From NCBI GenBank assembly GCA_032159565.1, contig JAVHWR010000038.1: a stretch of DNA of 64,000 nucleotides; one strand, written 5' to 3'. Source of the stretch: Mycobacterium sp. Its GTDB lineage: Bacteria > Actinomycetota > Actinomycetes > Mycobacteriales > Mycobacteriaceae. This document shows, piece by piece, positions 1,231 to 16,570 of this stretch. Each line of letters begins with the position of its first letter. Position 1 is the stretch's first letter. The notes under the pieces are model-generated. The model did no database searches. It saw nothing but the letters and a program-made list of their open reading frames with translations, and was not told the origin of the DNA. A program made the position numbers and the translations under genes.

Positions 1231-2394
1231 GTGTCCACTTCCTACCGTCGAAGTCTGCTGAACCCGGAGCACGACCAAGAGCGTGAACCGCTCGAAACTC
1301 AGCGCACCGCCGTTCATTTCGCCAACCCGTACCGCAGAAGAATCTCGGAATACGAGCAGGTGCTGCTCTACGCCCAGCCCAACCCCGACTGGATCCGTGG
1401 CGGCATCGGCGTAGGAGGGTGGACCACTCGATTTCCCGGTGGACGGGGCGCGTGGGAGAACTACTTCACCGAAGCCCGATGCACCGACTGGTTCGCCTTC
1501 AGGGATCCTGAGGGTCGCTGGCAGAGGCCGTATGTCGCCGAGAAGGCCGATCAGTGGCGCACCACCGGCCGGCTGTTCTCCACCTTCTCCAGCCACGCCC
1601 TGCACCGGGGCGCCGACTCCACCTGGATAGAAACCGTCATCGGTGAGCAGCTTGGTGCACTCGTGCTGCATGACTACGGACTCTTCATGGCGCTGACCTC
1701 TCCGGTGCGTGACAGCCTCGTCGACACCCTGCGGGTGGCGATCGTCAACTGGGCGTTGGATTACCTTGACAGCGCCCAGCAGATCCAGGCCGAGAAGGTA
1801 TTCCTGGGCCAGGTCGTCTCCGAGTCGCTCGCCCTGCTGGATCCGGCGAAGCAGCGATGGCTCAACGATCCGGCGTTCGCAGGCGCCAGAGGATTCGTCG
1901 AGCATCTCTGGCGCGACGGCTATGACCACATCGAAGTAGTCTTCGCCCTCGCGTTGATCTATGAACCGCTCTTCGGACGCTTTGTTCGCCAGGAGTACTT
2001 CTACCGGCTTGCGCCGCTGCACGGTGACCACCTAACCCAACAGATTCTTTGGCCGTCACTACGCTCCGCCGAAGCCGCCAACACCTGGACGCGTGAACTT
2101 TTCGACCGGATCCTCGGCGCGGATGCCGAATTCGGCACCTACAACCACCAACTGATGGCGTGGTGGTCCCATCGATGGCTGCCTCGCGCAGTCGACGCGA
2201 TCGCAGACATCTCGGCGCTGTTCGCGTCGACAGAGCTGTTGCGAAAGAGCCAGACGGAAACGCCTCGACAGCTCTTCGGAGAACTGGCGAACGACTGGGT
2301 CCGCGACGTCGCTCCCATATGGGGATCGGACTTCACGACGGAAAGCCTTCTCCGTCTCTATGACAACCGCCTATCCCGCGGAGGCTTGGGATGA
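1231..2394 (+). CDS. SDIMO hydroxylase beta subunit (MmoY-like)
   Basis: SEYEQVLLYAQPNPDWIRGG, TDWFAFRDP and PYVAEKADQW match the MmoY N-terminal pattern; 387 aa; GTG start. Confidence 0.93.
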   Translation: MSTSYRRSLLNPEHDQEREPLETQRTAVHFANPYRRRISEYEQVLLYAQPNPDWIRGGIGVGGWTTRFPGGRGAWENYFTEARCTDWFAFRDPEGRWQRPYVAEKADQWRTTGRLFSTFSSHALHRGADSTWIETVIGEQLGALVLHDYGLFMALTSPVRDSLVDTLRVAIVNWALDYLDSAQQIQAEKVFLGQVVSESLALLDPAKQRWLNDPAFAGARGFVEHLWRDGYDHIEVVFALALIYEPLFGRFVRQEYFYRLAPLHGDHLTQQILWPSLRSAEAANTWTRELFDRILGADAEFGTYNHQLMAWWSHRWLPRAVDAIADISALFASTELLRKSQTETPRQLFGELANDWVRDVAPIWGSDFTTESLLRLYDNRLSRGGLG

Positions 2395-2816
2395 CGGAAA
2401 TCCCTGTCACCGCCCAGAACTCACACCAGGCGGACGTGGACCGACGTATCTCGCGGGTGGACGCGCAGCAGTCGCGCGCCAACCTGTTCAGTGAGAACGG
2501 CGTGGTCGAGAGCCGTCGCGTGGTGCTGACCCTCACCAAGGCCGATGAGATCGAGGCGACCGTGGAGTGGCTCGCCGAACGGTACGCCGACGAGCCGAGT
2601 TTCACGATCCAGGACAGCGGAACCTACTACCGGATCGACTGCCTCGAAGGTTTCGAGATCGACGCCGAGGAGATAGCGGAACTCCTTGGCCGGCCCTTCT
2701 CCGTCTACGACCTCTTGGTGAACGTTTCCACCACGATCGGCCGGGCCTATGTGAACGGCGAGATATTCGCCATCACCACCGATCTCATCGGCTGGGAGCG
2801 CGAGGTGCCCCGATGA
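2391..2816 (+). CDS. SDIMO coupling/regulatory protein (MmoB-like) with N-terminal extension
   Basis: VVLTLTKADEI, EIAELLGRPFSVYDLLVNVSTTIGRAY and ITTDLIG match the MmoB/DmpM fold; ATGA overlap with the beta stop. Confidence 0.93.
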   Translation: MTEIPVTAQNSHQADVDRRISRVDAQQSRANLFSENGVVESRRVVLTLTKADEIEATVEWLAERYADEPSFTIQDSGTYYRIDCLEGFEIDAEEIAELLGRPFSVYDLLVNVSTTIGRAYVNGEIFAITTDLIGWEREVPR

Positions 2817-3838
2817 CCGAGTACAAGGTCGCGCTGACATTCGAGGGAGCCGACCGCGTCGACATCGCCTGCCGAGGTGACGAGGACGTCATCACTGCCG
2901 CTCTGAGACAGGGGTACCTACTCCTGAGCGACTGCCGCGAGGGCAGTTGTTCCACGTGCCGCGGGTTCCTGGTGGACGGCGACTATGACCAGTTGCTCAC
3001 CCACAGCCCCCACGCCCTCACCGAAGCCGAGGAGGACGACGGCCTGATCCTCGCCTGCCGCCTTCAGCCGGCGAGCGACCTGGAGATCGACTTCGACTAC
3101 CCAGCCGACCGCGTCGGGCGTTACGAGGAGGGCACGCGAACCGGGCAGATCGTGGAGGCCGAGCGCCTGTCGGAAACCGTCGCCCGGATCGTCGTTCGCA
3201 CCAACGCGGCTCAGGATCCACTCGATTGGGATCCCGGCCAATACGTTCAGGTCACTTTGCCTGCGCTCGGGGTCACCCGCGCCTACTCGATGTCAAAACC
3301 CGCAGACGGAAGCCGTCAACTGGAGTTCTTGATCCGACTACTGGCGGATGGCAAGTTCTCCGGTCATGTCGCCGCCGGGCTGGCGAAGGGTGAGCCGGTC
3401 CGGGTGCGAGGACCTCACGGTCAGTTCATCTTTCGCGGCGATCCGAAACCGGTGTTCATCGCCGGCGGGACGGGCGTCGCGCCGATCCTCGCGATTCTGC
3501 GGTCGTTGGCGCAGACCGCGCCCGACACCGAGGCAGGGGTGGTTTTCGGCGTTGGTACCGAAGCCGAACTGTTCGGCGTAGACGAGCTCTCCGAGCTGAG
3601 GCGTGTCCTGCCGAATCTCGACGTGGTGATCACCGTTGAGCGCCCGACATCGTCCTGGTCGGGTGCCGTCGGGCGAGTGACCGATCACCTCGGCGCCGAC
3701 GACCCCGCTAAGTCTTATTACCTCTGCGGGCCATCGGGGATGGCCAGCGCCGCCGAGGAACTCCTCGCAGCCGACGGAGTGGCCCGTGACCGCATCCATA
3801 TCGAACGGTTTCTCGAGACCGGAGAAGACCAGTCATGA
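2813..3838 (+). CDS. SDIMO reductase (2Fe-2S ferredoxin + FAD/NAD domains, MmoC-like)
   Basis: Start taken at ATG 2813 (ATGA overlap). DCREGSCSTC...LACR cluster ligands, RAYS and GKFS FAD motifs, FIAGGTGVAP and YLCGP NAD motifs, C-terminal ERF. Confidence 0.95.
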   Translation: MTEYKVALTFEGADRVDIACRGDEDVITAALRQGYLLLSDCREGSCSTCRGFLVDGDYDQLLTHSPHALTEAEEDDGLILACRLQPASDLEIDFDYPADRVGRYEEGTRTGQIVEAERLSETVARIVVRTNAAQDPLDWDPGQYVQVTLPALGVTRAYSMSKPADGSRQLEFLIRLLADGKFSGHVAAGLAKGEPVRVRGPHGQFIFRGDPKPVFIAGGTGVAPILAILRSLAQTAPDTEAGVVFGVGTEAELFGVDELSELRRVLPNLDVVITVERPTSSWSGAVGRVTDHLGADDPAKSYYLCGPSGMASAAEELLAADGVARDRIHIERFLETGEDQS

Positions 3839-4389
3839 CGCGAAATAGCAACGCCTCCGCGGGTGCAACGCCGCGGACCGAATACCCGCCGTTCGGAAAC
3901 CAGGCGTTGCGCCACGAGTGGACCGATCGCCTGGCACAGCTCTCGACACTCGATTCGGCACTCGCGCTTCTGCTCGATTGGCGACGCAGCCGTGAAGTCA
4001 ACGTCCTCGAAGAGGCGGACTTCCTGTGGATCGAGGCGCGCATCGAAGACCGGGTCGCAGTCCTCCGATTCGCCGAACTGTCAGGCGAGTACATCGATAC
4101 GACGGCACTCACCGGCGTTCCGATCTCGCAGGTCTGCGACACTGCACTGGCCGACGCGAGGGCGGCCGCCGACGTCCCGACACTCGAGACGGTCGTGAAC
4201 GCCTTCCGTCGCAACTTCAAGCCGCCGGTGATTCCCACTGTGCCGTTCATGCGCACCGAGACCGAGCTTGCCGAACTGCTGATGCTGCGCCGCTCCAAAG
4301 GGTGGTACGACGAGCCGCTTGACGAATTGCGACGCCGCCGCGCGGCCGTCCTGGTCCTCGAAGGAGCAGCAGGCGAACACGACAAGTAG
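3835..4389 (+). CDS. SDIMO hydroxylase gamma subunit (MmoZ-like)
   Basis: RHEWTDRLAQLSTL, DFLWIEARIEDRVAVL, FRRNFKPPVIP and WYDEPLDELRRRR align in order with recalled MmoZ motifs (DYLWIEAKLEEKVAVL, YKPPIMP, YYDTPLEELRKQR); ATGA overlap. Confidence 0.9.
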   Translation: MTRNSNASAGATPRTEYPPFGNQALRHEWTDRLAQLSTLDSALALLLDWRRSREVNVLEEADFLWIEARIEDRVAVLRFAELSGEYIDTTALTGVPISQVCDTALADARAAADVPTLETVVNAFRRNFKPPVIPTVPFMRTETELAELLMLRRSKGWYDEPLDELRRRRAAVLVLEGAAGEHDK

Positions 4390-4434
4390 ACCCGGAACCA
4401 ACCCACTTCCTCACTCGTACCAAGGAGACCGATC

Positions 4435-6003
4435 ATGCCCAACCTCGAATTCATCCAGCAATCAGGCGCATTGGGATATGCGCTTCTCTTCGGCCCGGGA
4501 ATCGTGCTGCTGCTCATCGCCCTTGCCGTCAAGGGAGCCGTCAAGACGACGCACAACTTCGTGATCTCCGGGCGGCTTCTCGGCTTCGGATTCGGTGTCG
4601 CGTCGCTCATCTCGGTGTGGACGTGGTCGATGGCGGTGATGCTGTCGTCCGCGCAGGCCTACACCTGGGGCACTTCAGGACTGGTCTGGTTCATCGTGCC
4701 CAACGGGCTCGCCGTGATCATCATGGTGCCGTTCGCCCTCAAACTTCGCCAGAAGATGCCTTCCGGCTATACCCTCGCGGAGTTCATTCGCGCACGGTTC
4801 CGGAACGGAATCAGCAGTGTGGCGACGCTGATCTTTCTGATCGGTGCTCTGCTCGGCGTCATCATGATCAACCTCGCCGGACTGGTACTGGTCATGAACA
4901 AGATCTTCGGCCTCACCCCGGTCAGCATCGTCATCACCGGCATCATCGTCGTCACCGTGTATTCCTACTTCGGTGGGCTGACCACATCCGCCGTGACCGG
5001 AACCTTGAACACTCTCCTTCTCGGTGTCGGGTCCTCGGTGGTCGTGCTCTACGCCTTGGCCAAGGCGGGCGGCGCAGAACTGGTGTTCAATGAGGTCCAC
5101 GCTCTCGGTGACCAGCACCTGAACCCCTTCAACCCGGTCACCGCCGCGAGCTTCGGCCTCGCGTTGGCTCTCGGACTACTCACGAATGTCATTGCCGACC
5201 AGTCATTCTGGCAGCGCGTATGGGCAATCAGGCCCAAGGATCTCGGCCGCAGCTTCCTGTGGGCAGGCGTGTGGTTCTACCCGATTCCTCTGGCGCTGGG
5301 CCTGCTTGGCTTCATCGGTGTCGCCTACGGCGTGACGCCCGAACAGCTGGGTTCGCTGGGGGCAGGTGCGATCGGCCCACACGTCATCGCCAGCCTCGGC
5401 CTGCCGATATTCATCATCGCCCTTTACACCCTTGTGGTCGTCAACGCGTGCTTCGCGGCCATCGACGGGGCACTGTCCGGCGTGACCTCGCTGGTCGCTG
5501 TCGACATCGTCCATCGCTACTGGCCTCAGGTGTCTGAGCGCAAGCTGCTCACCATCACCAAGACCAGCATGATCGTCGCGGCCGTAGTCGCCGGTGGTGT
5601 GGTGCTGACAGGTATCGACTACGTGAATCTCGTTACGACGGTGTACTTCTACGGCACAAGCCTTCTGATTCCGGTGACGCTCAGCATCTTCTGGTCGCGG
5701 ATGACCGGAACAGGGTACGTCGCGGGTGTGCTCGCGGGCATAGTCGTCGGTGGTCCTCTGCGCGAGACGCTCGGGCCCACGTACGGACCGCTCTTCGGAA
5801 TCATCGGGTTGATCGCTGCGTCGGCAATCGTCTCGGTGGTCGTCAGCCTGCGCGCCGACACCCAGTTCGACTTCGGCAGCTTGGCGGAAGGCAAGGCGGC
5901 GCTTCTGGAACGTGGAAACGGTGCGGCGCCGAAGAAACAAGCCGCGACGCCCGAGGCACTCGATGCCGACGACGCACGCAGCGAGCCCGCCGGACAGCAG
6001 TAA
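4435..6003 (+). CDS. Sodium:solute symporter family transporter, DUR3 (urea/polyamine)-like
   Basis: 522 aa with about 13 hydrophobic segments; ASLISVWTWSMAVMLSSAQAYTWG, GYTLAEFIRARF, YSYFGGL and DQSFWQR; AAGGAG SD upstream. Confidence 0.85.
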   Translation: MPNLEFIQQSGALGYALLFGPGIVLLLIALAVKGAVKTTHNFVISGRLLGFGFGVASLISVWTWSMAVMLSSAQAYTWGTSGLVWFIVPNGLAVIIMVPFALKLRQKMPSGYTLAEFIRARFRNGISSVATLIFLIGALLGVIMINLAGLVLVMNKIFGLTPVSIVITGIIVVTVYSYFGGLTTSAVTGTLNTLLLGVGSSVVVLYALAKAGGAELVFNEVHALGDQHLNPFNPVTAASFGLALALGLLTNVIADQSFWQRVWAIRPKDLGRSFLWAGVWFYPIPLALGLLGFIGVAYGVTPEQLGSLGAGAIGPHVIASLGLPIFIIALYTLVVVNACFAAIDGALSGVTSLVAVDIVHRYWPQVSERKLLTITKTSMIVAAVVAGGVVLTGIDYVNLVTTVYFYGTSLLIPVTLSIFWSRMTGTGYVAGVLAGIVVGGPLRETLGPTYGPLFGIIGLIAASAIVSVVVSLRADTQFDFGSLAEGKAALLERGNGAAPKKQAATPEALDADDARSEPAGQQ

Positions 6004-6030
6004 TACCCAGAACAGTAGAAAGGCACTCTC

Positions 6031-6369
6031 GTGGTCATCTTTTACATCGGCGCAACCATCGGCTTGGTTCTCGCCGTCCTCTATCTGATCGTCGGCGCCC
6101 TCAGCTTTCTCCGGATCCGGCGAGAGTTGGTGGCAGGCAACAGTGTGGTTCTGGGGGAAGAGACAGACTCCTCCGAGATCGCCCTTGTGCCCGGCTTCAC
6201 ATGGAAGGCGACCTTGGCCGTCCTGACGTCGTTCGTCTTACTGGTCATCGCTTCCTACAGCGGCGTGTTCTGGTACGTGCTCGCGTTGAGCGGACTCGGT
6301 ACAGCAGCGGCGGTAATCGTTGCCTTCGTTCTCGAGCTGCGTGGCGACCGCACCGGGACCGCCGCGTGA
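6031..6369 (+). CDS. Small membrane protein (about 3 TM helices), unknown function
   Basis: 112 aa, hydrophobic; GAAAGG SD before the GTG; its stop overlaps the next start (GTGA); fills the gap within the operon. Confidence 0.75.
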   Translation: MVIFYIGATIGLVLAVLYLIVGALSFLRIRRELVAGNSVVLGEETDSSEIALVPGFTWKATLAVLTSFVLLVIASYSGVFWYVLALSGLGTAAAVIVAFVLELRGDRTGTAA

Positions 6370-7685
6370 CCAAGAAAAAGGCGCACCTTCTGGGTTTCGT
6401 TCAGCACGGTGTGATGAACCACGCGTCGACGATGTGGGCGCATCCGCGCGACAAGGTCGGCTATCACTGGTCGCGGCCGGAGTATTGGCGCGATCTCGGC
6501 GGGATCATGGAGCGTGGCCTGTTCGACGCGATGTTCATCGCCGACGAGTTGGCCCCGTACACCACCTATAAGGGCAACTCGGATCCGGTCGTGAAGTATG
6601 CCGGACAGTGTCCGGTGCACGAGCCCGCAACTCTGGTGCCGATCATCGGGGCGTTCACCAAACACCTCGGGATCGGCATCACGCTGTCGACATCGTTTGT
6701 GCCGCCGTACATGATGGCCCGCCACCTGTCCTCGCTCGACCACCTGACCAACGGCCGGGTCGGCTGGAACATTGTGACGTCGTACTCCAAGAGCGAGTTC
6801 CAGGCGATGGGCAAGGACAACCTCACGCCTCGGGACAAGCGTTACGAAGTGGTCGAGGAGTACATGCAACTGCTGTACCAGCTGTGGGACTCCTGGGATG
6901 ACGACGCGATCGTCTACGACCGCGAGAATGGGATCTTCGCCGATCCCTCGAAGGTGCGCGAAGTCGACTTCCAAGGCGAGTTCTTCAAGTCGAAGGGGCG
7001 CCACTTCGTCGCACCGTCACCGCAGAAGCGGCCGGTGCTGTGGCAGGCCGGCTCCTCGGATCAGGGCCGCGATTTCGCCTCCAAACACGCGGAATCCGTG
7101 TTCGGCATCTTCCCTACCCCCAAGAGCATGCGGGCCTATGCCGACGACATCCGCACCCGAGCCGACGACCACGGACGCGATCCCGATTCGGTGAAGCTGA
7201 TCTACGGTCTGCAGACCATCATCGATCGGGACAAATCCCGCGCGAACGACAAGTACGCCGAGTTCGTCGAGAAGGTGCAGATCGAGAGCGCACTGGGAAT
7301 CCTTTCTGGCCATACGGGATTCGACTTCTCCACACTCGGCCTAGACGACAACGTCGTCGATGCGGACGTGCAGGGTATCCGCGGTCTGTTCGACGCCATC
7401 CTGGAGGCCAAGGACGGCGCACCGGTGACCGTCCGTGAGGCCGCGCAGATCTATGGAGTCTCGATGGGCGCGCCGGTCGCGGTTGGCACACCCTTGGACG
7501 TCGCCGACCAGATGGAGCAGTACCTCGACGACGGCGGCTGCAACGGCTTCATGTTGCTTGCCACCGATACGCCCGGCTGCTTCAACGACGTGACCGAGCT
7601 GCTGGTGCCCGAACTTCAGCGGCGCGGACGGTACCGGACGCGCTATCCCGGAACGACTTTGCGGGAAAGCCTGCAGGAGTATTAG
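6366..7685 (+). CDS. NtaA/SnaA/DszA/DmoA-family FMN-dependent (LLM class) monooxygenase
   Basis: Start GTG 6366. FDAMFIAD, HEPATLV, TKHLGIGITLSTS, SSLDHLTNGRVGWNIVTS, QAGSSDQGRDFASKHAE and LVPELQRRG. Confidence 0.92.
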   Translation: MTKKKAHLLGFVQHGVMNHASTMWAHPRDKVGYHWSRPEYWRDLGGIMERGLFDAMFIADELAPYTTYKGNSDPVVKYAGQCPVHEPATLVPIIGAFTKHLGIGITLSTSFVPPYMMARHLSSLDHLTNGRVGWNIVTSYSKSEFQAMGKDNLTPRDKRYEVVEEYMQLLYQLWDSWDDDAIVYDRENGIFADPSKVREVDFQGEFFKSKGRHFVAPSPQKRPVLWQAGSSDQGRDFASKHAESVFGIFPTPKSMRAYADDIRTRADDHGRDPDSVKLIYGLQTIIDRDKSRANDKYAEFVEKVQIESALGILSGHTGFDFSTLGLDDNVVDADVQGIRGLFDAILEAKDGAPVTVREAAQIYGVSMGAPVAVGTPLDVADQMEQYLDDGGCNGFMLLATDTPGCFNDVTELLVPELQRRGRYRTRYPGTTLRESLQEY

Positions 7686-9190
7686 CAGTCGTCGTGTCTG
7701 GCTTCGCGCCAGGCCCGCTCGAACGGCAGCCGCCATGCGTTGGGCGCGATCAGCTGGTGAATCGCGTTGGGCCCCCACGTGCCCTGCGGGTACGACTTGA
7801 CCGCCGGCGGGTCGGACAGCAGGCTCTCCGAACGCTCCCACAGCGACTCGATGCCCTCCGCGGTGGTGAACAGTGTGTGATCGCCGCGCATCGCGTCGAG
7901 GATCAGGCGCTCGTAGGCCTCGAGCACGTCGTTCATGGTGTCGGTCTCTTGAGTCGAGAACTGCATCGAGAGCTTGTCGAGCTTCATCCCGGGTCCTGGG
8001 CGCTTGCCGTAGAAGGACAGCGACACCTTGGAGTTGTCGGCGAGATCGAAGGTGAGGTGGTCGGGGCCTTGGGAACCGACGCCCGAGCCCGACGGGAACA
8101 TGGACCGCGGCGCCTCTTTGAACGCAATGGAGATGACGCGAATGCCCTCGGCCATACGCTTTCCCGTGCGGAGGTAGATCGGTACCCCGGCCCAACGCCA
8201 GTTGTCGATACCCACCTTGAGCGCGATGAACGTCTCGGTATCGGAATCGCGGGCGACACCTTTATTCTTGCGGTACCCCACGTACTGCCCTCGGACAACT
8301 TTGGCCGGGTCGACAGGCAACATCGAGCGGAACACCTTGTTCTTCTCTTCGCTGATGGCGCGGGGTTCGAGTGCCGTCGGCGGCTCCATCACGACGAACG
8401 CCATCACCTGGAAAAGGTGGGTGACCACCATGTCCTTGTAGGCGCCGGTGCTCTCGTAGAAGTTGGCCCGTTCGTCCAGCCCCAGGGTCTCCGGGATGTC
8501 GATCTGGATATGGTCGATGAAGTTGCGGTTCCAGATCGGCTCGAACAGACCGTTGGCGAACCTGAAGGCCAGGATGTTCTGCGCGGCCTCCTTGCCGAGA
8601 AAGTGGTCGATGCGGAAGATCTGACTTTCGTCAAACGTCTCGTGGACGAAGTCGTTGAGTTCGACGGCGCTCTCCAAGTCGGTGCCGAACGGCTTCTCCA
8701 TGACGACCCGCGATCGCTCCACCAGCTTCGCGTCACGCAGCATGGTGATGACCGCGCGGGCGGCTTTCGGCGGTACCGACAGATAGTGGAGACGGCGGAC
8801 GTCCGGCCCCAGCTTTTCCTCGGCTTCCTCGACGGCGGCTGCAAGTGCCTCGGGACCCGTGCTCTGAGGGACGTAGGTGACCCTCTCGGCGAACCGGGCC
8901 CACTGTTCCTCGGTGAGCTTGTGCGTTCCGAAGTCGTCGATTGCCTCTTTGGCGACTTCGAGGAACTCGTCTCGGGAAATCTCCTCCAGCGACGTCGCGA
9001 CGATCTCGATGTTGGGTGCGAGTTCGGACTGGCCGAGATAGGCGAGCCCGGGAATCAATTTCCGTCTCGCAAGGTCACCGGTCGCGCCGAACAACACGAC
9101 GACGTGCGGATCGACCGCGAAGTCGTCGTTACGGCGTGCGCGCGCGCCCGGCCCCGGGTAGGAGATCGTCTGCGGTTTGCTTGTCGCCAC
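7682..9190 (-). CDS. zwf: Glucose-6-phosphate 1-dehydrogenase
   Basis: GATGDLARRKL, RVVMEKPFG, RIDHFLGKE, WAGVPIYLRTGKR and AYERLI. GTG 9190 has a GGAAGG SD; ATG 9199 is the alternative start. Confidence 0.95.
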   Translation of the reverse strand: MATSKPQTISYPGPGARARRNDDFAVDPHVVVLFGATGDLARRKLIPGLAYLGQSELAPNIEIVATSLEEISRDEFLEVAKEAIDDFGTHKLTEEQWARFAERVTYVPQSTGPEALAAAVEEAEEKLGPDVRRLHYLSVPPKAARAVITMLRDAKLVERSRVVMEKPFGTDLESAVELNDFVHETFDESQIFRIDHFLGKEAAQNILAFRFANGLFEPIWNRNFIDHIQIDIPETLGLDERANFYESTGAYKDMVVTHLFQVMAFVVMEPPTALEPRAISEEKNKVFRSMLPVDPAKVVRGQYVGYRKNKGVARDSDTETFIALKVGIDNWRWAGVPIYLRTGKRMAEGIRVISIAFKEAPRSMFPSGSGVGSQGPDHLTFDLADNSKVSLSFYGKRPGPGMKLDKLSMQFSTQETDTMNDVLEAYERLILDAMRGDHTLFTTAEGIESLWERSESLLSDPPAVKSYPQGTWGPNAIHQLIAPNAWRLPFERAWREARHDDC

Positions 9191-9419
9191 GCTCGGCATC
9201 CTTCCACCGCCGGATTCTTCACGCACGCTTTGCCGCCCTCCGCCACCGCGCAGTCACAAGCCAGACAACCTATCGTTACCCCTGATCGGCGCCGGCCAAT
9301 CGTCTCGTGCCTGGTACTGCCACCGCCGTCAATTTCTCAGCAACCCAATATGCAACCGGTGTACTCTCCGGGCGGTTGGGGACCACGCGGCGACGCACCT
9401 ACCGGGACGAGGCTGTGCC

Positions 9420-11771
9420 ATGGCAACCGAATTCAACGGCAAAATCGAGCTGGACATCCGCGATTCCGAGCCGGACTGGGGGCCCTACGCCGCACCCACC
9501 GCACCCGAAGGCTCGCCCAACATCCTCTATCTCGTGTGGGACGACACCGGCATCGCGACCTGGGATTGCTTCGGTGGCCTGGTGGAGATGCCGACGATGA
9601 GCCGCATCGCTGAACGCGGTGTGCGGCTCTCGCAGTTCCACACCACTGCGCTGTGCTCGCCGACGCGCGCCTCGCTGCTGACCGGACGCAACGCCACCAC
9701 CGTCGGCATGGCCACCATCGAGGAGTTCACCGACGGGTTCCCCAACTGTAACGGCCGCATCCCGGCGGACACCGCGCTGCTGTCAGAGGTGTTGAACGAG
9801 CGGGGCTACAACACCTACTGCGTCGGCAAATGGCATCTGACACCGTTGGAAGAGTCGAATCTCGCTGCCACCCGGCGTCATTGGCCGCTGTCTCGCGGGT
9901 TCGAGAGGTTCTACGGCTTCATGGGCGGCGAGACCGACCAGTGGTACCCGGACCTGGTATACGACAACCATCAGGTCGCACCGCCGGCGACGCCGGAAGA
10001 GGGCTATCACCTGTCGAAGGACCTCGCCGACAAGACAATCGAGTTCATCCGCGACGCCAAGGTGATCGCCCCCGACAAGCCGTGGTTCAGCTATGTCTGT
10101 CCCGGTGCCGGGCATGCCCCACACCACGTCTTCAAGGAGTGGGCGGACAAGTACGCAGGCAAGTTCGACATGGGTTACGAGCGCTACCGCGAGATCGTGC
10201 TCGAGAACCAGAAGAAGCTCGGCATCGTGCCGCCCGACACCGAATTGTCGCCTGTCAACCCGTATCTCGACGTCAAGGGTCCCAATGGAGAAGCGTGGCC
10301 ATATCAGGACACGGTGCGGCCGTGGGAGGGACTCAACGACGAGGAGAAGCGCCTCTTCAGCCGGATGGCAGAGGTGTTCGCCGGATTCCTGTCCTACACC
10401 GACGCCCAGATCGGGCGCGTCCTGGACTATCTCGAGGAGTCCGGGCAATTGGACGACACGATCATCGTGGTGATCTCCGACAACGGCGCCAGCGGTGAGG
10501 GCGGCCCGAACGGGTCGGTCAACGAGGTGAAGTTCTTCAACGGCTACATCGACACGGCCGAGGACGGCATGGCCTACATCGACCACCTCGGCGGACCGGA
10601 GACCTACAACCACTATCCGATCGGCTGGGCGATGGCGTTCAACACGCCCTACAAGCTGTTCAAGCGCTACGCCTCGCATGAGGGCGGCATCGCCGACACC
10701 GCAATCGTCAGCTGGCCCAACGGAATCAAGGCGCACGGCGAGGTACGCGACAATTACGTCAACGTCTGCGACATCACCCCGACAGTTTACGACCTGCTCG
10801 GTATCACCCCGCCCGCAGAAGTCGGCGGTATCGCACAGAAGCCGCTCGACGGCGTGAGTTTCAAAGCCGCCCTGGACAATCCGTCCGTCGAGACCGGCAA
10901 AGACACCCAGTTCTACACGATGCTCGGCACCCGGGGCATCTGGCACAAGGGCTGGTTCGCCAACACCGTTCACGCCGCCACCCCGGCGGGCTGGTCTCAC
11001 TTCGAGCAGGACCGGTGGGAGCTGTACAACATCGAGGCGGACCGCAGTCAGTGTCATGACCTCGCCGCCGACGAACCGGACAAACTCGACGAGATGAAGA
11101 AGCTCTGGTTCGACGAGGCCGCGAAGTACAACGGGCTTCCGCTGGCCGATCTCAACATCTTCGAGACGATGACGCGCTTTCGGCCGTATCTCGTCGCCGA
11201 CCGGAAGAACTTCACGTACTACCCGGACAACTCCGACGTCGGCCTCGGCGCGGCACCGGAGCTGCGAGGCCAGTCGTTCTCCGTGCTGGCCGAGGTCACC
11301 GTCGACACGCCCGGCGCGGAGGGAGTGCTCTACAAGCAGGGCGCGGGGCACGGCGGCCACGTGTTGTTCGTCCAGGACGGCCGGTTGCACTACATCTACA
11401 ACTTCATGGGGGAGGACGAGCAGAAGTTGTCCGCGCCTGACCCGCTGCCGTTGGGCGATCATGTCTTCGGTGTGCGCTATGACCGCACCGGCACGGTTGA
11501 AGGCAGTCATACGCCGCTGGGCGACGTCTCGCTCTACGTCGACGGTGCCCCGGTGGCGACGATGCCGGGAGTGCGCACCCACCCCGCGAGCTTCGGCCTT
11601 TCGGGCGGCGGCGTGGCCGTCGGACGCAACACCGGCCAGGCAGTGTCGAGCAGCTACAAAGCCCCATACCCGTTTACCGGTGGGACCATCGCCAAGGTCG
11701 TCGTCGACATCTCGGGCACGCCCTACCTGGACGTCGAACGGGAATTGGCGCAAGCCTTCTCAAAAGACTGA
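9420..11771 (+). CDS. atsA: Arylsulfatase (type I, formylglycine-dependent)
   Basis: NILYLVWDD, CSPTRASLLTGR (CxPxR), GKWHL and SDNG; 783 aa; next to an FGE gene and upstream of rplN as in M. tuberculosis Rv0711. Confidence 0.93.
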   Translation: MATEFNGKIELDIRDSEPDWGPYAAPTAPEGSPNILYLVWDDTGIATWDCFGGLVEMPTMSRIAERGVRLSQFHTTALCSPTRASLLTGRNATTVGMATIEEFTDGFPNCNGRIPADTALLSEVLNERGYNTYCVGKWHLTPLEESNLAATRRHWPLSRGFERFYGFMGGETDQWYPDLVYDNHQVAPPATPEEGYHLSKDLADKTIEFIRDAKVIAPDKPWFSYVCPGAGHAPHHVFKEWADKYAGKFDMGYERYREIVLENQKKLGIVPPDTELSPVNPYLDVKGPNGEAWPYQDTVRPWEGLNDEEKRLFSRMAEVFAGFLSYTDAQIGRVLDYLEESGQLDDTIIVVISDNGASGEGGPNGSVNEVKFFNGYIDTAEDGMAYIDHLGGPETYNHYPIGWAMAFNTPYKLFKRYASHEGGIADTAIVSWPNGIKAHGEVRDNYVNVCDITPTVYDLLGITPPAEVGGIAQKPLDGVSFKAALDNPSVETGKDTQFYTMLGTRGIWHKGWFANTVHAATPAGWSHFEQDRWELYNIEADRSQCHDLAADEPDKLDEMKKLWFDEAAKYNGLPLADLNIFETMTRFRPYLVADRKNFTYYPDNSDVGLGAAPELRGQSFSVLAEVTVDTPGAEGVLYKQGAGHGGHVLFVQDGRLHYIYNFMGEDEQKLSAPDPLPLGDHVFGVRYDRTGTVEGSHTPLGDVSLYVDGAPVATMPGVRTHPASFGLSGGGVAVGRNTGQAVSSSYKAPYPFTGGTIAKVVVDISGTPYLDVERELAQAFSKD

Positions 11772-15620: not shown

Positions 15621-16160
15621 ATGTCGCGCATTGGTAAGCAGCCGGTTCCGGTACCCACCGGAGTCGACGTGACGATCGACGGCCAGCACGTCTCGGTCAC
15701 GGGGCCCAAGGGCAGCCTGAACCTGGCGGTCGCCGAGCCGATCAAGGTGGCCCGCGATGACGACGGCGCCATCGTGGTGACCCGGCCCGACGACGAGCGG
15801 CGCAACCGCTCACTGCACGGGCTGTCGCGCACCCTGGTGGCCAACCTCGTCACCGGCGTCACCGATGGTTACACCGTCAAGATGGAGATCTTCGGCGTCG
15901 GCTACCGCGTGGTGGCCAGAGGCAGCGACCTCGAATTCGCCCTGGGTTACAGCCACCCGGTGCTGATCACCGCCCCGGAGGGCGTCACCTTCGCGGTGGA
16001 GACACCGACGAAGTTCTCGATCACCGGTATCGACAAGCAGAAGGTCGGCCAGATTGCGGCCAACATCCGTCGTCTGCGGAAGAGCGACCCCTATAAGGGC
16101 AAGGGCATCCGCTACGAAGGTGAGCAGATCCGCCGCAAGGTCGGAAAGACAGGTAAGTAG
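15621..16160 (+). CDS. rplF: 50S ribosomal protein L6
   Basis: [22 protein letters not shown]. Confidence 0.99.
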
Positions 16161-16162
16161 CA

Positions 16163-16570
16163 ATGGCTCAAGCCCAGAAAGCAACAGGCGCACCGAAGCA
16201 GGCCGGGCAGAGCGTGTCGGCGGCCCGCCGCACTTCGCGGCTGCGCAGGCACGCCCGGCTGCGCAAGAAGATCGAGGGGACGGCCGAGCGGCCGCGCCTG
16301 GTGGTCAACCGCTCCGCGCGGCACATCCACGTCCAGCTGGTCGACGACCTGAACGGCACAACGCTGGCCGCCGCGTCGTCCATCGAAGCCGATGTGCGCG
16401 GGGTGGACGGCGACAAGAAGGCCCACAGCACGCGGGTCGGTCAGCTGATCGCCGAGCGAGCCAAGGCCGCCGGGATCGAGACCGTCGTGTTCGACCGGGG
16501 TGGCTACACCTACGGCGGACGGCTCGCTGCGCTGGCCGACGCGGCACGCGAAGGTGGGCTGAAGTTCTAA
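16163..16570 (+). CDS. rplR: 50S ribosomal protein L18
   Basis: [38 protein letters not shown]. Confidence 0.98.

Follow-up and report, generated by a model that had tools for sequence, protein, structure and literature searches.

A methane monooxygenase-like gene cluster joined to a symporter and flavin monooxygenase module in Mycobacterium, with a possible role in organosulfur scavenging

The stretch of DNA considered here (the window; 64,000 nucleotides, G000:C62:16863-80862 in a Mycobacterium-type genome of 6.2 Mb) opens within a run of eight plus-strand genes. Five of these, in the order smoXYBCZ, encode a soluble di-iron monooxygenase (SDIMO). They are followed, after a 45-nt spacer, by genes for a sodium:solute symporter (SSS), a small membrane protein with three predicted transmembrane (TM) helices (the 3-TM protein) and an NtaA-type luciferase-like flavin monooxygenase (LLM). 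The smoX gene starts at C62:16485, which is 378 nt 5′ of the window, and its full open reading frame (ORF) occupies L001:16485-18083; all other coordinates are collected in Table 1. An earlier interpretation of the letters alone (hereafter the sequence-only reading) had described an SDIMO operon that continues into a symporter and a flavin monooxygenase, with a GTGA overlap between the last two genes. The gene content and the overlap stand, but the interval holds three genes rather than two. The 3-TM gene begins 27 nt past the end of the SSS gene, and the overlap at 6366-6369 joins this ORF to the LLM gene.

The profile and structure matches place the SDIMO among the soluble methane monooxygenase (sMMO)-like enzymes of group 3, with its genes in smoXYBCZ order. 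Its alpha subunit is of the MmoX type with a di-iron carboxylate domain, and aligns over its full length with MmoX structures at 610 bits, compared with 88 bits for phenol hydroxylase. A gamma subunit, an MmoB coupling protein and an MmoC-type reductase, the last composed of [2Fe-2S] ferredoxin, FAD and NAD domains, are encoded in the same cluster. All NCBIfam scores of the SDIMO proteins remain under the equivalog cut-offs (for example, 327 bits for the beta subunit with the MmoY model), and thus these proteins are not sMMO orthologues. The closest comparisons are SmoXYB1C1Z of Mycobacterium sp. NBB4 and MmoXYBZDC, with which the window's enzyme has in common five components including gamma; its order of alpha, beta, coupling protein, reductase and gamma is the one implied by the name SmoXYB1C1Z. 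Unlike SmoXYB1C1Z and sMMO, the unit described here lies behind an operator of the ssu/tauD type, is depleted of methionine and is followed by the SSS-TM-LLM genes. It also has no alcohol dehydrogenase (ADH) or aldehyde dehydrogenase (ALDH) genes nearby, and no MmoD or MmoG gene was found in the region examined.

The three genes that follow the SDIMO belong to families of differing clarity. The symporter matches the Pfam SSF family with 59.3 bits (gathering score 22.8), and reaches 102.7 bits with TIGR00813, under the cut-off of 184. Its best matches among PDB entries are plant DUR3 proteins (65 bits, E = 6e-17, with the best stretch in the N-terminal 200 residues), compared with 22 bits and E = 7e-4 for vSGLT. 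Some automatic pipelines label its close relatives ‘urea-proton symporter’. The 3-TM protein matches no Pfam or NCBIfam family, and probably serves the symporter as an accessory subunit. The NtaA-type assignment made in the sequence-only reading is upheld for the LLM, whose residues 11-434 score 494 bits with TIGR03860, the NtaA/DmoA family (cut-off 279.7). Its nearest structures are DmoA (333 bits, 2e-98) and LadA (8e-96), then DszA (275 bits), with NtaA and EmoA far lower. Identity to DmoA and LadA is about 45%, as estimated from printed alignments.

A scan with an SSS alignment, using one genome per species and mechanical ORF calls in the relatives, recovered 74 loci. An NtaA-type LLM gene follows the SSS gene in 67 of them, and a 3-TM gene is present in about 50. 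The hosts span Actinomycetota, Proteobacteria and Cyanobacteria and include Mycobacterium, Nocardioides, Pseudonocardia, Aeromicrobium, Solirubrobacterales, Rhizobiales, Pseudomonas, one cyanobacterium and one verrucomicrobium, and the SDIMO is missing from nearly all (about 60 loci lack it). When the neighbouring ORFs of 73 loci were clustered, only the SSS, small TM and LLM genes proved to be universally conserved. The clustering brought up no conserved accessory enzyme from which the substrate could be identified, and no flavin reductase was found in the operon or among the conserved neighbours of these loci. The variable neighbours are LysR, enolase-superfamily, aldo-keto reductase, FAD monooxygenase, formamidase, MFS and SDR genes. 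When the window is compared with mycobacterial loci that have no SDIMO, homologous DNA begins at 4403-4422, by the ribosome-binding site of the SSS gene, and ends at 7681-7684, by the stop codon of the LLM gene, which defines a discrete unit of 3.28 kb. Thus SSS-TM-LLM is an autonomous, widespread and older module.

Across the genus the LLM is 92-98% identical, with or without an SDIMO beside it. We note that in loci L040-L067, where the LLM keeps this level, the SSS is only about 51% and the 3-TM protein 31-38% identical, and so the transporter pair has either been swapped or evolves much faster than the LLM. Many of these divergent loci, which we call ‘type 2’, also carry a second NtaA-type paralogue at 53-56% identity.

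Given the DUR3-like carrier, it is reasonable to ask whether the unit handles a nitrogen compound, as the sequence-only reading had considered possible. In such a pathway, the carrier would import the SDIMO substrate (an alkylamine, alkylurea or N-heterocycle), and the LLM would cleave a C-N bond. DUR3 is indeed the nearest solved relative of the symporter, the pipeline labels point the same way, and the NtaA family includes the C-N cleaving enzymes NtaA and EmoA. In one Rhizobium locus, moreover, a formamidase/acetamidase gene adjoins the module; this neighbour and the DUR3 similarity are the only hints towards nitrogen. Genes for amidases, deaminases or amine dehydrogenases are not among the conserved neighbours of the module, and the LLM is structurally nearest to DmoA, LadA and DszA rather than to NtaA or EmoA. 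Partners of the module at other loci are cysK-like and SfnG-like: in at least 13 mycobacterial loci the module follows a second LLM gene and, at the start of the locus, a gene that resembles cysK (345 bits with the CysK model), and in a Hansschlegelia locus an SfnG-like LLM gene lies between two NtaA-type genes. With the regulatory and compositional evidence presented below, which also speaks against it, we regard a nitrogen pathway as improbable.

The SDIMO genes lie directly 5′ of the module at eight of the scanned loci and also in G781 and the window, amounting to about ten Mycobacterium species. Wherever flanks are available, the eight-gene unit sits between rpsQ and zwf/atsA. A search for the alpha subunit in two samples of 400 genomes, one drawn from the family and one from the genus, established that every intact alpha at 88-92% identity has the module 3′ of it. 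The sequence-only reading had proposed to look for such co-occurrence in other genomes, and had held that homologous SDIMO clusters lacking the transporter and flavin monooxygenase would count against a joint pathway. All eight genes do occur in every intact member found of this SDIMO clade, whereas three outgroup clusters (alpha 58-64% identical, XYBCZ order) are indeed without the module. One of these outgroups, G453, is flanked by aldehyde dehydrogenase and zinc alcohol dehydrogenase genes; no ADH or ALDH homologues were found beside the other two.

Two further loci deviate from this pattern. In G542 (L095, G542:C7 8142-13625), all that is left is an alpha remnant, a smoX gene of 88% identity at a contig end about 1.5 kb from atsA, without the beta, MmoB, reductase, gamma, SSS, TM, LLM or zwf genes. 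In L078 and L097, which come from a metagenome-assembled genome, the alignments of the reductase, gamma, SSS and small TM genes are all split in two, and so either assembly errors have introduced frameshifts or the operon is decaying in this lineage.

Alignment of the DNA upstream of smoX revealed a conserved block, GTTCnnnTCAnnnCGAnnCAAAnnnTTA, followed 20 nt on by TAnnnT, which resembles a mycobacterial -10 element. This candidate operator lies about 90 nt 5′ of smoX in all SDIMO-linked loci, and the -10-like box about 40 nt before the ATG. A weight matrix located the same element 90-175 nt 5′ of the SSS gene in six SDIMO-less loci, as well as weaker relatives 120-217 nt 5′ of divergent type 2 SSS genes. 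In SDIMO-linked loci, no copy was found within 300 nt 5′ of the SSS gene, the spacer included. None is present at the SDIMO of the outgroup clusters, where the single site of G462 lies at ssuCBA. The SDIMO cassette is thus not preceded by any conserved promoter of its own, and lies between the promoter/operator of the module and the SSS gene. No Rfam match to a known RNA element, such as a SAM riboswitch, was found 5′ of smoX.

The eight genes are very probably one transcription unit, because the spacer between gamma and SSS is short and unstructured, the sole conserved promoter lies 5′ of smoX, and the same element precedes the SSS gene in relatives without an SDIMO. No terminator-like site was found in the spacer, and its predicted fold is weak (-7.7 kcal/mol, z = +1.3, which is less structure than in shuffled sequences). 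Both the absence of an obvious terminator in the 45-nt gap and the continuation of the SDIMO operon into the symporter and LLM genes, as stated in the sequence-only reading, are thus supported. The convergent zwf gene, which overlaps the LLM stop codon by 4 nt and occurs at some but not all SDIMO-linked loci, is the boundary at the 3′ end and lies outside the operon.

A variant site, CTTCGATTCACCnTGCTTTTATCCGTTT, which is conserved and has the 5′ half of the operator, precedes the cysK-like-LLM2-SSS-TM-LLM operon. It is located about 110-130 nt 5′ of the cysK-like gene where the start of that gene is known (L012 and L022).

Mycobacterium pulveris provides a natural deletion of the SDIMO. A tree of module DNA places M. 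pulveris inside the SDIMO-linked clade, with G781, which carries the SDIMO, as its sister (support 100/100). Pairwise alignment of the two reveals that exactly 4,759 bp, corresponding to smoXYBCZ, are missing from M. pulveris, with the ends of the deletion 17 nt before the smoX ATG and 20 nt after the smoZ stop codon. The junction falls within both (T)AGGAG Shine-Dalgarno sites, so that the SSS gene directly follows the smoX leader. M. pulveris thus lost smoXYBCZ through recombination between two Shine-Dalgarno sites, and because the junction lies within these sites, the smoX leader and promoter now drive SSS-TM-LLM in this species. The sequence-only reading had the symporter import the SDIMO substrate. 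Such a role is not needed, given that some 60 module loci have no SDIMO and that M. pulveris kept the module after losing its own.

These same observations lend some weight to the view that the SDIMO and the module are accidental neighbours, in which case an ordinary short-chain alkane or alkene SDIMO like SmoXYB1C1Z would serve carbon metabolism and any read-through would be meaningless. The module is autonomous and ancient, the linkage may stem from one event at one chromosomal site, and M. pulveris dropped the SDIMO while retaining the module. LLM conservation is the same with or without the SDIMO, and the closest outgroup SDIMO has classic ADH and ALDH neighbours. Against this, the cassette lacks its own conserved promoter and is placed behind an operator common to ssu/tauD operons, no ADH or ALDH gene is nearby, and all eight genes remain intact in about ten species. 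Once the loss of methionine described below is also taken into account, we judge accidental juxtaposition to be unlikely.

The other locations of the operator bear on the physiological setting. In a weight-matrix scan of the window's genome, the top match is the site at smoX (39 bits). The second match (28 bits), a clear outlier, lies 94 nt 5′ of a tauD-ssuC-ssuB-ssuA-tauD operon with the same spacing of operator and -10 box; as in M. pulveris, 30 nt separate the CAAAC core from that box (TAACGT). A third, weaker site precedes ssuC-ssuB. A pattern scan that allowed two mismatches or fewer, with the reversed pattern as the control, yielded 9 matches versus 0 in 13 genomes and 32 versus 7 in 151 genomes of the genus. 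Judged by permease coordinates, 13 of the 23 non-module matches lie directly 5′ of SsuC-type operons. Six of these directly precede ssuCBA, and in the other seven an orthologous permease gene starts 913-950 nt downstream, a gap wide enough for tauD. Two more sites, in G022 and G032, lie at SsuC-type operons whose binding proteins pass the SsuA_fam cut-off, for a total of 15 further genomes. Conversely, a matrix built from the ssu/tauD sites only assigns 24-37 bits to the upstream regions of the module, a level reached by at most 0.07% of background windows. A common cis-regulatory site is therefore found at the module and at ssu/tau-type operons alike. Since the operator also precedes tauD-ssuCBA operons, the unit would belong to an organosulfur or sulfur-limitation regulon, and on this evidence we consider it likely that the eight genes constitute one operon within a regulon of the ssu/tauD type. 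A site common to sulfonate-scavenging operons, and not to nitrogen genes, is also hard to reconcile with a nitrogen pathway.

Two other genomic features near this subject should be mentioned. A weak operator-like match (17 bits) at G000:C121:22447 lies inside an apparent sulfite-reductase gene, as judged by eye from the translation, and is probably due to chance. The arylsulfatase and formylglycine-generating enzyme (FGE) genes downstream of zwf were considered as evidence for sulfur metabolism and discounted. No copy of the operator was found at these genes, and they are part of what we take to be a conserved mycobacterial backbone, rpsQ-atsA-FGE (Rv0710-Rv0712 in M. tuberculosis).

The operator has a GC-rich core between two arms, the first rich in T and the second, which overlaps the -35 region, rich in A. 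Activator sites for SsuR and CysR in Corynebacterium glutamicum, which lie 5′ of promoters, are likewise made up of T-rich, GC-rich and A-rich parts in this order (PMC2580772). This likeness is architectural only, and offers a lead rather than an identification of the regulator. The ssu/seu genes of C. glutamicum form a comparable actinobacterial sulfur-starvation regulon with ssuCBA and FMNH2-dependent monooxygenases. The Seu enzymes are members of the NtaA/DszA family, and we know of no SSS or SDIMO in that regulon.

It could also be argued that the operator is real but senses another signal, such as redox state, flavin status or general starvation, so that the unit is co-regulated with ssu/tauD genes without taking part in sulfur acquisition. 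About 10 of the 23 checked pattern matches are not beside SsuC-type genes, and the LLM is not depleted of sulfur. We nevertheless think this quite improbable, given the composition of the proteins involved. The TauD proteins of the operator-bearing operon contain 0-0.3% Cys+Met and its binding protein 0.8%, when the 5th percentile for the genome is 1.1%, which confirms that the tauD-ssu operon has a composition of the classic sulfur-starvation type. The SDIMO, as described next, shows a loss that is specific to methionine.

Over the five SDIMO subunits, methionine makes up 1.0% of residues in the window and 1.2-2.1% in seven clade relatives, compared with 3.0-3.4% in the three outgroups. Of 24 alignment columns in which all three outgroups have methionine, the window retains 7 (29%), compared with a retention of 70% for all other residues (Fisher p = 6.7e-5), and in most cases Leu or Ile has taken the place of methionine. 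Cysteines, Fe-S ligands included, are kept at 87% in the window's SDIMO. The recruited SDIMO clade has thus lost about two thirds of its methionines. A shift in base composition was examined as the cause and rejected, since the GC content (0.63) is comparable with that of the outgroups (0.61-0.63) and Ile shows no depletion. A nitrogen pathway would not account for such a sulfur-sparing composition, and the loss of methionine also speaks against accidental juxtaposition. Among the module proteins, the 3-TM protein contains neither Cys nor Met, and the SSS has 1.7% Cys+Met. A comparison of Cys+Met content for each operon protein with the genome was not decisive, as the LLM and alpha subunit are average, and the comparison of the clade with its outgroups is more informative.

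Taken together, we favour the view, to which we assign a probability of roughly 55%, that the eight-gene unit serves to scavenge organosulfur compounds under sulfur starvation, and not to use a nitrogen compound or gaseous alkanes as a carbon source. The evidence accordingly turns away from the nitrogen-containing substrate raised by the sequence-only reading, owing to the operator common to tauD/ssuCBA, the cysK-like gene in sister loci and the methionine depletion of the SDIMO. It favours the organosulfur compound that was listed there as one option.

A plausible course of events can be outlined. A pre-existing SSS-TM-LLM module would have been under the control of its own operator and promoter. 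In one Mycobacterium lineage, the five-gene SDIMO cassette would then have come to lie exactly between the module leader and the SSS start, and thereby would be transcribed together with the module. Sulfur limitation might induce the operon, upon which the symporter would import a small polar organosulfur compound and the LLM would cleave its C-S bond. Cleavage of C-S bonds is known for DszA, SfnG and DmoA. Reduced flavin would be supplied in trans by a reductase encoded elsewhere. The SDIMO might give access to further sulfur sources through the oxygenation of organosulfur compounds that are volatile or hydrophobic, for example by converting dialkyl sulfides to sulfoxides and sulfones, as DsoABCDEF does with dimethyl sulfide (DMS), and these products could feed the LLM. 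A specific role of the SDIMO as a sulfide oxygenase is proposed by analogy and must be considered tentative. Equally speculative is the broader picture of an sMMO-lineage enzyme domesticated for sulfur acquisition. Such an enzyme would be controlled only by a sulfur-limitation operator, purged of methionine and used to oxygenate DMS-like volatiles, while the co-transcribed LLM could free the sulfur and the DUR3-like carrier with its small subunit could import sulfones.

Several observations weigh against the assignment to sulfur scavenging. Co-transcription and sulfur control are both deduced from sequence. Genes for a flavin reductase, a desulfinase or the handling of sulfite are absent from the operon. 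Among solved structures, urea/polyamine carriers come closest to the SSS, and there is the formamidase gene beside one Rhizobium module. The LLM contains 3.4% Cys+Met, which puts it at the 73rd percentile of the genome's ORFs, and the content of the SDIMO alpha subunit is average. Finally, the tree does not group the window's module with the other SDIMO-linked modules. One origin of the linkage is not rejected (approximately unbiased test, p = 0.38 for one clade), and thus an independent second origin, which we had considered, is not established. As the linkage may trace to one event, its conservation alone is weak evidence.

Known sulfur-assimilation systems provide partial precedents. The multicomponent di-iron monooxygenase DsoABCDEF of Acinetobacter sp. 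20B oxidizes DMS to dimethyl sulfoxide (DMSO) and on to dimethyl sulfone (DMSO2) for use as a sulfur source, after which LLM-type enzymes cleave the C-S bonds (PMC13352529). The window's enzyme is likewise a multicomponent di-iron monooxygenase, for which activity on sulfides is suggested by analogy only. It differs from DsoABCDEF, which has six components and is phenol hydroxylase-like, in being sMMO-like with a gamma subunit. The Dsz (4S) pathway and SfnG/DmoA follow a similar logic in which S-oxygenation precedes C-S cleavage by an FMNH2-dependent monooxygenase of the NtaA family. In the Dsz pathway, however, the oxygenase is the flavoenzyme DszC rather than a di-iron enzyme, and the window's operon has no equivalent of the DszB desulfinase or the DszD/SfnF reductase. 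Literature searches for an SDIMO combined with a symporter or an LLM found nothing.

Studies of SDIMOs have treated them as biocatalysts and as oxygenases that serve the use of hydrocarbons as carbon sources. If our interpretation is true, then a group 3 SDIMO would have a different physiology, namely the scavenging of sulfur as a nutrient, and SDIMO substrates that have not been explored, such as sulfides and sulfones, would be suggested. Beyond this, the analysis defines a widespread and uncharacterised three-gene module comprising an SSS, a 3-TM protein and a highly conserved LLM. The candidate operator for a mycobacterial sulfur regulon makes the regulator and its regulon directly testable, and M. 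pulveris is a clean natural case of operon remodelling by recombination between Shine-Dalgarno sites.

Table 1. Coordinates of the eight-gene unit, its candidate regulatory sites and related loci. Plain numbers are window positions; other positions carry the name of their contig or locus.
Feature	Position	Strand	Remarks
smoX/mmoX-like SDIMO hydroxylase alpha, C-terminal 406 of 532 aa	1..1221	+	Pfam Phenol_Hydrox; MmoX structures 610 bits
SDIMO hydroxylase beta (MmoY-like), 387 aa	1231..2394	+	Phenol_Hydrox 125 bits
MmoB/DmpM coupling protein, 141 aa	2391..2816	+	PF02406 68.5 bits; ATGA overlap with beta
MmoC-like NADH oxidoreductase, 341 aa	2813..3838	+	Fer2, FAD_binding_6, NAD_binding_1; MmoC model 297 bits
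SDIMO gamma (MmoZ-like), 184 aa	3835..4389	+	PF02964 MeMO_Hyd_G 97 bits; stop codon 4387-4389
gamma-SSS spacer, 45 nt	4390..4434	+	AAGGAG Shine-Dalgarno site
SSS, DUR3-like, 522 aa	4435..6003	+	PF00474; DUR3 nearest PDB match; ATG at 4435
3-TM protein (small membrane protein), 112 aa	6031..6369	+	between SSS and LLM in ~50 loci
NtaA/DmoA/DszA-type FMNH2-dependent LLM, 439 aa	6366..7685	+	TIGR03860 494 bits; GTG start
zwf (glucose-6-phosphate dehydrogenase)	7682..9226	-	TIGR00871 445 bits
Candidate operator	C62:16390-16417		5′ of window; upstream alignment
-10 box TACCAT	C62:16438-16443		5′ of window; upstream alignment
tauD-ssuC-ssuB-ssuA-like-tauD operon	L100 (G000:C74) 5705-10374		operator 5′
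SDIMO-linked loci	L019, L033, L035 (M. moriokaense), L036, L037, L039 (M. stellerae), L078, partial L031		
SDIMO-less loci with operator	L038 (M. pulveris), L028, L023, L021, L029, L020		
M. pulveris deletion junction	L038 9911-10001		versus L096 (G781, reverse complement) 2325-7083
CTTCGATTCACCnTGCTTTTATCCGTTT sites	L012 7622, L018 7641, L022 7668, L024 7681, L025 7725		

On the 5′ side of the unit in the same contig lies the S10 ribosomal operon, whose last genes, rpmC and rpsQ, end at C62:15544. On the 3′ side, zwf is followed by the arylsulfatase gene and then the FGE gene. A 155-aa minus-strand ORF 5′ of smoX (ORF155) was considered as a gene; it is of low complexity, has no Pfam match and is probably spurious. 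Between rpsQ and the operator, a segment of about 420 nt (L001 15755-16175) with a 105-aa plus-strand ORF (15895-16212) is 73-77% identical to the DNA located 3′ of the LLM gene in L019 and L038, and probably represents a relocated gene fragment.

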